A DNA stretch of 64,000 nucleotides from Escherichia coli. Its GTDB lineage: Bacteria > Pseudomonadota > Gammaproteobacteria > Enterobacterales > Enterobacteriaceae. Within the stretch, counting starts at the first letter, position 1; each line of letters opens with the position of its first letter. Of the stretch, positions 61,500 through 62,747 are shown piece by piece. The stretch is from the NCBI RefSeq assembly GCF_003790525.1, contig NZ_CP033635.1; one strand, given 5' to 3'. The position numbers and the translations under genes are program-made. Below the pieces are notes generated by a model. The model saw only the letters and a program-made list of their open reading frames with translations. It did not search any database and was not told where the DNA came from.

Positions 61500-62747
61500 T
61501 CAGCCAAATTTAGGTAACACGTTAAAGACGTTACCGAACCAGCATAAAATTACGGTTATACCAAAGAGAATGACAATCGCCGGAATAAGATTGCCGCCCC
61601 AGACCGTGAACATCTGATTGGGAAACTTCTTGCGAGCTTTGATTGCCAGCACTGCGGGAATAATGACCGCCCAGATGGTGGCGCACAGTCCGGCACCGCC
61701 GATCCCGTAAATAAAGCCGTTCGGGAAGATCAGATACAACAACGCGGGTGGCAGGAAGGTTAACAGCACGGTTTTGAAACGCCCGCCGTGGGAGTTATCA
61801 ATCTTAAACAGATCCGCCAGATAATCGAACAATCCCAGCGTGACACCAAAGAACGAACTGGCAACAGCTAAGTTGGAGAACACCAGCAGGCAAAACTCGA
61901 TAATCCCATGCTGTTTGGTGCCGAGGAACGATTTCACCAGCGAATCAACGTTGCCGCCTGAGGAGATTATCGCCTTAAAGCTTTCGCGCGGAATATTCCC
62001 CATCGTGCAATAGAGCCAGAAGAGATAAATCACCAGCGCCAGCAGCGAACCAAAGACCACGCTTTTGATTAACTTATCTTTGCGTTTGCCATAGCAAATA
62101 ATCAGGCTGGGAATATTGCCGTGGAAACCAAATGACGCCAGACACACCGGCAAAGCCATAAAGATATACGGGAAGTAAGACGTTCCCGCAGTGGTGCTGG
62201 TGGCATCGCGCAGAATGGAGTAATCGACCTGGAAGAAGAAAGAACCAAACACGATCACAAAGGAGATAATCTTCAGCCCGAGGAACAATGAGGTAATACG
62301 ACTGGCGGCTAACGAGCTTATCCACAATACGCTGGCAACGAAAATGGCTGTGCAGATCCCGACAATACGCGGATTAGCGTGATAGCCCAAATTCATTGAT
62401 ATCGTTTCACTAATGATCGCACCATTAGCAGAGATATAGGCATAAGTGAGGATATAGAGAACGAAGGCAACGGTAATACCGCTGATAATGTTCTAGGTGT
62501 TACCGATTAAATCTTTGGTGATGGTGTTAAAACTGGAGCCGACAGGATAATTTAAATTTGCTTCTAATAACAATAACCCGGAATGAAGCATTGAAAACCA
62601 GGCAATGATAAGGATAAAGGCACCCCAGAAAAACCAGGCACCGGCAAGATCAACAGGTAAAGCAAACATACCTCCACCAATTACTGTACCTGCTATAACC
62701 ATAACACCCCAAAATGCAGAGTGCTTTTTTTCAGCTTGATCAGTCAT
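61500..62747 (-). pseudogene. tnaB: Low-affinity tryptophan permease tnaB interrupted by one in-frame amber codon (62493-62495)
   Basis: Track ORFs 62493..62747 and 61500..62396 are in the same frame; my translation across the gap reads ...[47 protein letters not shown]...; 416 codons total, the expected TnaB length. Confidence 0.8.

Follow-up and report, generated by a model that had tools for sequence, protein, structure and literature searches.

The closest described counterpart of the locus analysed here is the tnaB gene of Escherichia coli K-12 (b3709). Its intact product belongs to the NCBIfam equivalog NF007235 and to the Pfam family PF03222 (Trp_Tyr_perm; HAAAP family), and has Mtr and TyrP as paralogues. 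The tnaB locus in the window (the whole 64,000-nucleotide stretch of E. coli DNA under analysis) lies at the same place, with the same neighbours (tnaA-tnaB-mdtL-yidZ), and all 415 positions of the equivalog are matched by its reconstructed protein. Unlike the K-12 gene, it is interrupted at codon 85 and therefore yields no full-length permease; in RefSeq it is a pseudogene.

A second point of comparison is mutational. The classical amber hotspots, known from work on lacI, arise by deamination of 5-methylcytosine at Dcm sites. The sites recognised by Dcm and Vsr have been defined, and the T:G mismatches that result from such deamination, in a CTWGG/CCWGG context, are the substrate of Vsr (PMC2715241). 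The tnaB allele (W85*) resembles the lacI hotspots in its ancestral CCWGG site, in the C-to-T change at the inner cytosine, which in tnaB is that of the non-coding strand, in the position of the amber codon within CTAGG, in the presence of dcm and vsr in the host (as seen in strain SMS-3-5), and in its recurrence. It differs from them in that the lacI cases are laboratory mutants, mostly CAG to TAG, whereas W85* is a natural allele at a tryptophan codon, fixed in a wild clone.

The interpretation favoured here, to which we assign a probability of roughly 0.8, is that W85* is a genuine inherited nonsense mutation, fixed in the SMS-3-5/ST354 clade, that inactivates the TnaB tryptophan/H+ symporter and most likely originated by Dcm-site deamination. 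The features on which this interpretation is based are collected in Table 1.

Table 1. Features of the tnaB locus and related elements, in window coordinates.
Feature	Position	Strand	Remarks
tnaB pseudogene (low-affinity tryptophan permease)	61500..62747	minus	416 codons, internal amber at codon 85
Amber TAG in place of Trp85	62493..62495	minus	gene nt 253-255; mutated base nt 254 = window 62494
N-terminal fragment ORF, 84 aa + stop	62493..62747	minus	sole product predicted when translation begins at the usual tnaB start
C-terminal remnant ORF, 298 aa from Met118	61500..62396	minus	without the first 117 residues
Mutated Dcm site	62493..62497	plus	CTAGG from CCAGG (coding CCTGG to CCTAG); Dcm target cytosine: inner C, 62494
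Intact Dcm site over Trp38	62634..62638	plus	deamination would give W38*; W38* elsewhere 10/10 TAG
Intact Dcm site over Trp50	62598..62602	plus	deamination would give W50*; W50* elsewhere 6/6 TAG
Intact Dcm site over Gln173 (CAG)	62228..62232	plus	deamination would give Q173*; 172-aa product on 118 contigs
tnaA (tryptophanase), 3' 387 of 472 codons, open	62838..64000	minus	start at about 64253; first 85 codons and tnaC beyond the window end
trpT (tRNA-Trp)	2826..2901	minus	wild-type CCA anticodon, so no amber suppressor

The interrupted tnaB gene and its distribution

Translation of the minus strand across the locus gives 416 codons with a single internal stop, at codon 85, in addition to the normal terminal stop; the plus strand reads 'cta' at the three positions concerned, which is TAG on the minus strand. 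The 84-aa and 298-aa ORFs share one frame, and their starts are 351 nt (117 codons) apart. With Trp85 restored, the 415-aa protein scores 926.7 bits against NF007235, for which the cutoff is 497 bits, and the match extends over positions 1-415 of 415; the fragments cover positions 1-84 (84-aa ORF) and 118-415 (298-aa ORF). Alignment with the paralogue Mtr is gapless across the stop, and the tryptophan is conserved in that protein (W87). Codon 85 is TGG in the tnaB genes of XDL, CFSAN061771 and K-12, and since the intact XDL allele differs at one base only (nt 254), the change can be given as TGG to TAG, W85*. The original prediction, made from the letters of the window, is thereby confirmed in its structural claims: a single in-frame amber codon at 62493-62495, a TGG to TAG change at a tryptophan codon, two ORFs in one frame that together span 416 codons, and TnaB sequence that continues on both sides of the stop.

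An uninterrupted ORF of about 415 aa, as expected of a TnaB family member, is absent. The TAG at codon 85 interrupts the frame, and the locus is therefore a tnaB pseudogene and not a functional member of the family. The operon position is that of tnaB, with tnaA immediately upstream in the window and the order tnaC-tnaA-tnaB-mdtL in the near-identical SMS-3-5 record. The separate 84-aa and 298-aa gene calls are fragments of one pseudogene, and should be treated as such by annotation pipelines and in pangenome studies.

The 1,248 nt of window tnaB are 100% identical to the sequence in SMS-3-5 and in 21 other complete E. coli genomes (22 in total), obtained from humans, dogs, chickens, a pangolin and water. 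The SMS-3-5 copy (NC_010498.1, 4166903-4168150) carries the PGAP/RefSeq label 'tnaB, pseudogene, internal stop'. A 61-nt probe with the amber sequence, centred on codon 85, is found exactly in 26 of 5,405 genomes, namely the 22 in the clade and four on other backgrounds, and the remaining 5,379 match it at 95-99% identity, i.e. without the exact amber sequence. Over a 25-kb comparison, identity to the window reaches 99.9% or more in 23 genomes, and TAG is present in 22 of these. The nearest genomes outside the 23 are other phylogroup-F strains, for example CE10 and IAI39, at 99.3-99.4% over the 25 kb, and none of them is among the 26 amber carriers. SMS-3-5 has been typed as ST354 (PMC9174282), a sequence type that belongs to phylogroup F (PMC12817139), and the window belongs to this SMS-3-5/ST354 clade. 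Comparison with tnaB from related strains had been proposed along with the prediction as a check on the amber codon; it returned the identical codon in the 22 complete clade genomes and the four elsewhere, and an intact allele, that of XDL, which aligns across the stop.

XDL, a blood isolate, is the sole TGG genome among the 23, and its tnaB differs from that of the window only at nt 254 (G in place of A). Over the compared 25 kb, XDL and SMS-3-5 likewise differ at the TGG codon and nowhere else; because that single difference is the codon itself, these 25 kb hold no phylogenetic signal on the relationship of the two.

Beyond complete genomes, the exact 84-aa product is found on at least 1000 public contigs (1,470 index blocks) from NCBI, ENA and Logan assemblies, counts which are inflated by the clonal expansion of ST354. 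The pseudogene is already present in the RefSeq annotation and is best described as a lineage marker, real but ordinary; as such, W85* provides a handy single-base marker for the ST354/SMS-3-5 clone. A literature search found no paper on the natural tnaB W85* allele and none that ties tnaB pseudogenes to ST354.

Dcm sites and the probable origin of W85*

In the intact gene, the coding strand around codon 85 reads ACC TGG AAC and contains CCTGG, and the base that changed is the G opposite the inner cytosine of the complementary CCAGG. A route to the amber codon can be proposed in three steps. Dcm would methylate the inner cytosine of the plus-strand CCAGG at 62494 in vivo, the resulting 5-methylcytosine would deaminate spontaneously to thymine, and the T:G mismatch would evade very-short-patch (Vsr) repair and become fixed as CTAGG (CCTAG on the coding strand). 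Both dcm (WP_001157241.1) and vsr (WP_000786004.1) are annotated as intact in SMS-3-5 (1227053-1228922), and 5,358 of 5,426 genomes have dcm-vsr. On the strength of the sequence comparisons, it is probable that W85* arose by 5-methylcytosine deamination at this Dcm site. The allele would then be a natural example, by a textbook mechanism, of Dcm methylation shaping which pseudogenes arise.

There are four Dcm sites in tnaB, and all four would yield an amber codon on deamination (W38, W50, W85 and Q173); the seven other tryptophan codons of the gene lie outside Dcm sites. Stops at the Dcm-site tryptophan codons are TAG in 22 of 22 places, representing 18 haplotype clusters (10/10 at W38, 6/6 at W50 and 6/6 at W85), and TAG is found on at least nine haplotype clusters for W38* and on at least six for W50*. 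At the non-Dcm tryptophan codons W41, W142, W244, W359 and W403, by comparison, 13 stops are TAG and 18 are TGA. The distribution of TAG and TGA between the two classes of codon gives a Fisher p of 3.7e-6 by place and 1.6e-4 by cluster, values to be read with the provisos that the counts come from DNA fetched for exact truncation products, that the places are not a random sample, and that sites differ idiosyncratically. A site-level test is weaker: all three Dcm sites are among the four all-TAG sites of the eight, for which the chance expectation is about 0.07, and the figure is no better than this because W359, a codon outside Dcm sites, likewise has TAG only (3/3).

The abundance of the truncation products follows a similar division. 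The Dcm-site products ending at W38, W50, W85 and Q173 are found on 87, 499, at least 1000 and 118 contigs, respectively, and all four rank above the six non-Dcm products, which are found on 15-70 contigs each; clonal expansion inflates these counts. The most abundant tnaB truncation looked up is W85*, with its 1,470 index blocks (clonally inflated, as above) compared to 620 for the next, W50*. Nonsense alleles outside Dcm sites, such as W41*, also recur on many haplotypes, and recurrence alone is thus no proof of a hotspot. About half of the '141-aa' matches are contig ends and not stops. As a separate observation, contigs from five unrelated sequencing runs stop at tnaB nt 423-425 (codons 141/142), which suggests a recurrent assembly break, for example at an insertion-sequence site, and not a nonsense mutation.

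The W50* allele, at another of the Dcm sites, is a second common natural tnaB amber, with its 499 contigs falling in at least six haplotype clusters; one of the records is named E. coli O157:H7 str. K1927. Like W85*, the other tnaB knock-outs (W50*, W38*, Q173*, W41* and the insertion of IS5 in W3110) abolish a non-essential permease and leave tnaA intact, but their positions and mutational routes differ from those of W85*.

The concentration of stop-prone sites in tnaB has to be seen against that in other genes. A set of 47 neighbouring genes has 150 Dcm sites, of which 60 (40%) are stop-prone, and compared with this background the 4/4 of tnaB is nominally unusual (p = 0.026). The density of stop-prone Dcm sites in tnaB, 3.2 per kb, is matched or exceeded in the essential genes atpF, atpI and atpG. 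The gene contains no repeat tract of the kind that would mark a contingency or phase-variable locus. A special 'switch' architecture in tnaB was considered and rejected, given how frequent stop-prone Dcm sites are in the neighbouring genes (40%) and that some essential genes have a higher density of them. It is concluded that tnaB is not specially stop-prone; tolerance of its loss is what differs, and W85* persists because the loss of TnaB is tolerated.

Loss of TnaB could instead be positively selected, for instance where limiting indole or tryptophan catabolism is of benefit in some niches, and such selection, in place of mutation bias, could explain the prevalence of W85*. Natural lesions of tnaB are recurrent and affect many codons in many backgrounds, which is consistent with this, as are the IS5 in tnaB of the K-12 W3110 lineage (PMC10652928) and the fixation of W85* in a successful multi-host clone. 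The same prevalence can, however, be accounted for by hitch-hiking during clonal expansion combined with weak purifying selection; in addition, the amber 61-mer is absent from 5,379 of the 5,405 complete genomes, and the stop-prone Dcm density of tnaB is, as described above, unexceptional. Positive selection is on balance considered rather unlikely, and mutation at a Dcm site in a gene whose loss is tolerated is the reading retained here.

The haplotypes on which W85* is found bear on whether the mutation occurred more than once. There are three of these: that of ST354, that of two O9:H10 pig isolates, and that of MSHS 472 together with OHT76-1. In pairwise comparisons they differ at 23-48 of 2,748 sites, and over the same 2,748 nt each is exactly one base from some intact allele. 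Across 8,061 nt, G254A is the one difference between MSHS 472 and an intact pig isolate, and Res13-PEB20 is separated from strain 2 HS-C by four bases, G254A among them. It is improbable that W85* arose once and was then spread to the other lineages by short-patch homologous recombination. Such a history could be accommodated in the tracts where the haplotypes are not distinguished, since informative sites that set the phylogroup-F haplotype apart from the other two are lacking in the interval -132 to +378 of the tnaB start, and those that would set the Res13-PEB20 haplotype apart from that of MSHS 472 are lacking in the interval -597 to +1197. These tracts would allow a patch of less than about 510 bp, or, between Res13-PEB20 and MSHS 472, one of less than 1.8 kb, but every transfer would need both of its breakpoints inside such a short tract, with closely spaced lineage-specific SNPs on either side. 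The W38 and W50 Dcm sites, moreover, show the same kind of TAG on at least nine and on six clusters, a pattern that fits recurrent mutation.

An extension of the Dcm model, and quite an improbable one, is that the tnaB Dcm sites serve as a slow reversible toggle, in which deamination (CCAGG to CTAGG) turns the gene off, Vsr-promoted CTAGG-to-CCAGG change turns it on again, and XDL is a revertant. Conversion of CTAGG to CCAGG can indeed be promoted by Vsr (PMC2715241), and the support for a toggle consists of these known changes and of the existence of XDL. If it were true, selection could act through the toggle to adjust how strongly a lineage scavenges tryptophan and signals by indole, and W85* would owe its prevalence in ST354 to adaptation and not to hitch-hiking.

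Possible decoding of the amber codon

The original prediction carried the caveat that permease function might be retained if the strain suppresses amber codons. The search for suppressors was negative. In the window, trpT encodes the wild-type tRNA (Table 1), and in SMS-3-5 the anticodons are likewise wild type for serU (CGA), glnV/X (CTG) and glnU/W (TTG). None of 5,441 records has the supF allele, and a full-length supP allele is likewise absent across 5,426 genomes, the seven records at '>=99%' being partial matches. The supE44 probe, which serves as a positive control, is matched in 155 records, and all 45 among the matches listed are K-12 laboratory strains. An amber suppressor tRNA was thus not found in a survey comprising the window trpT, the serU and four Gln tRNAs of SMS-3-5 (part of its tRNA set), and the supE, supF and supP probes.

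Amber suppressor alleles do exist in E. coli, as the supE44 matches illustrate, and low-level natural read-through of UAG occurs, but with trpT, serU and the Gln tRNAs all wild type, and with the listed supE44 carriers confined to K-12 laboratory strains, it is very improbable that the codon is decoded, by a suppressor or by efficient read-through, so that full-length TnaB is still made. In CP147423 the amber allele is also without its normal stop codon, which points to decay and not to maintenance. In this record (CP147423.1), the loss of the stop at codon 416 results in a downstream ORF that is called as 324 aa, and it looks like a second hit in a dead gene.

A shortened permease made by restart at Met118 is scarcely credible. 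An in-frame, ATG-initiated ORF of 298 aa does follow the stop and is predicted by gene callers, but the remnant begins only after residue 117 of a polytopic transporter of 415 aa, and the missing part is one in which TnaB and Mtr are well conserved; the sequence upstream of the Met118 ATG, AGTGAAACGATATCAATG, has no evident Shine-Dalgarno motif on reading; and PGAP treats the locus as a pseudogene. That the TAG is a sequencing or assembly error in a strain that is truly TGG, as its close clade member XDL is, can be dismissed as negligible, given the identical TAG in 22 independently sequenced complete clade genomes and four on other backgrounds, the 84-aa product on at least 1000 contigs, and a site free of homopolymers.

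Expected effects on tryptophan uptake and the surrounding region

Translation of the W85* allele would halt after 84 residues and, judging from the known role of the gene, would give no functional permease; TnaB-mediated tryptophan import is accordingly an activity that the strain is expected to have lost. As tnaB is the last gene of tnaCAB, no operon gene downstream is affected. Both aroP and mtr are intact in SMS-3-5, and tryptophan uptake as such should therefore persist, via Mtr and AroP. The induction of tna and the production of indole depend mainly on tryptophan import by TnaB (PMC4323232), and deletion of tnaB causes a 20% drop in indole, as cited in PMC11091664. With the TnaB route that feeds tna induction and indole lost, indole would be lower or slower to appear, but not absent, and from the known role of TnaB the strain is expected to stay indole-positive, with reduced or delayed indole and weaker tna induction. 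The prediction that indole production could persist is thus plausible, but it needs to be qualified to this extent, TnaB import being the main driver (PMC4323232) and a 20% drop having been cited (PMC11091664). W85* in this way predicts a testable shift in ST354, towards less TnaB-dependent import and weaker or slower tna induction and indole production. Effects of indole extend to biofilm formation, virulence regulation and the host epithelium.

It had further been stated that tnaA, downstream of the tna leader, appears intact. The statement is true of SMS-3-5, a near-identical record in which both tnaC and tnaA carry intact annotations, but it is unreadable from the window, since the leader and the first 85 codons of tnaA are outside it. 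In the part of tnaA within the window, residue 282 is Val in place of Met (ATG to GTG, window 63408-63410). This substitution, shared by the SMS-3-5 clade including XDL, is the sole TnaA difference from K-12, and it is located 12 residues from the PLP-binding Lys270; the other strains examined have the K-12 protein.

The 90-nt spacer between tnaA and tnaB contains a perfect 10-bp inverted repeat, AGAGTGGCTA ... TAGCCACTCT, with a 9-nt loop (window 62799-62827), which may form an mRNA stem-loop that affects the ratio of tnaA to tnaB expression. A search of both strands of 59000-64000 against Rfam gave no family at threshold, and no promoter-like sites were found across the same 5 kb, where terminator-like matches are at chance level (4, compared to 1.8 +/- 1.4). 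The plus-strand ORFs across the locus are short (at most 57 aa) and unremarkable.

Several features were observed elsewhere in the window. Between pstS and glmS (window 38316-43295) lies an O113-type long polar fimbriae operon, with lpfA-lpfB-lpfC and a fimbrial protein gene. Two large hypothetical genes lie between yieH and phoU (window 48549-55404), together with a 'type III effector protein' gene and a fragment with a frameshift; in K-12 this interval is occupied by cbrBC-yieKL-bgl. At window position 46103, one base differs from SMS-3-5 and, judged by bit score, from all of the other closest complete genomes, and it changes PstA residue 159 from Ala (SMS-3-5) to Ser (window). The window therefore comes from a close relative of SMS-3-5 and not from that genome. 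In and just past the 16S rRNA gene, at window 6401-6483 and 7449-7970, the sequence departs from SMS-3-5 by a 3-nt indel and a small number of substitutions, which seem to reflect heterogeneity among rrn operons, gene conversion or a difference in assembly.

The SMS-3-5 chromosome itself has a large inversion relative to K-12 (NC_010498.1, 1.13-2.18 Mb), such that genes at about 1.0 Mb in K-12 are located at about 2.15 Mb in reverse order, and genes at about 2.04 Mb in K-12 are located at about 1.17 Mb. In the same genome, torS is frameshifted and a prophage adjoins serU.
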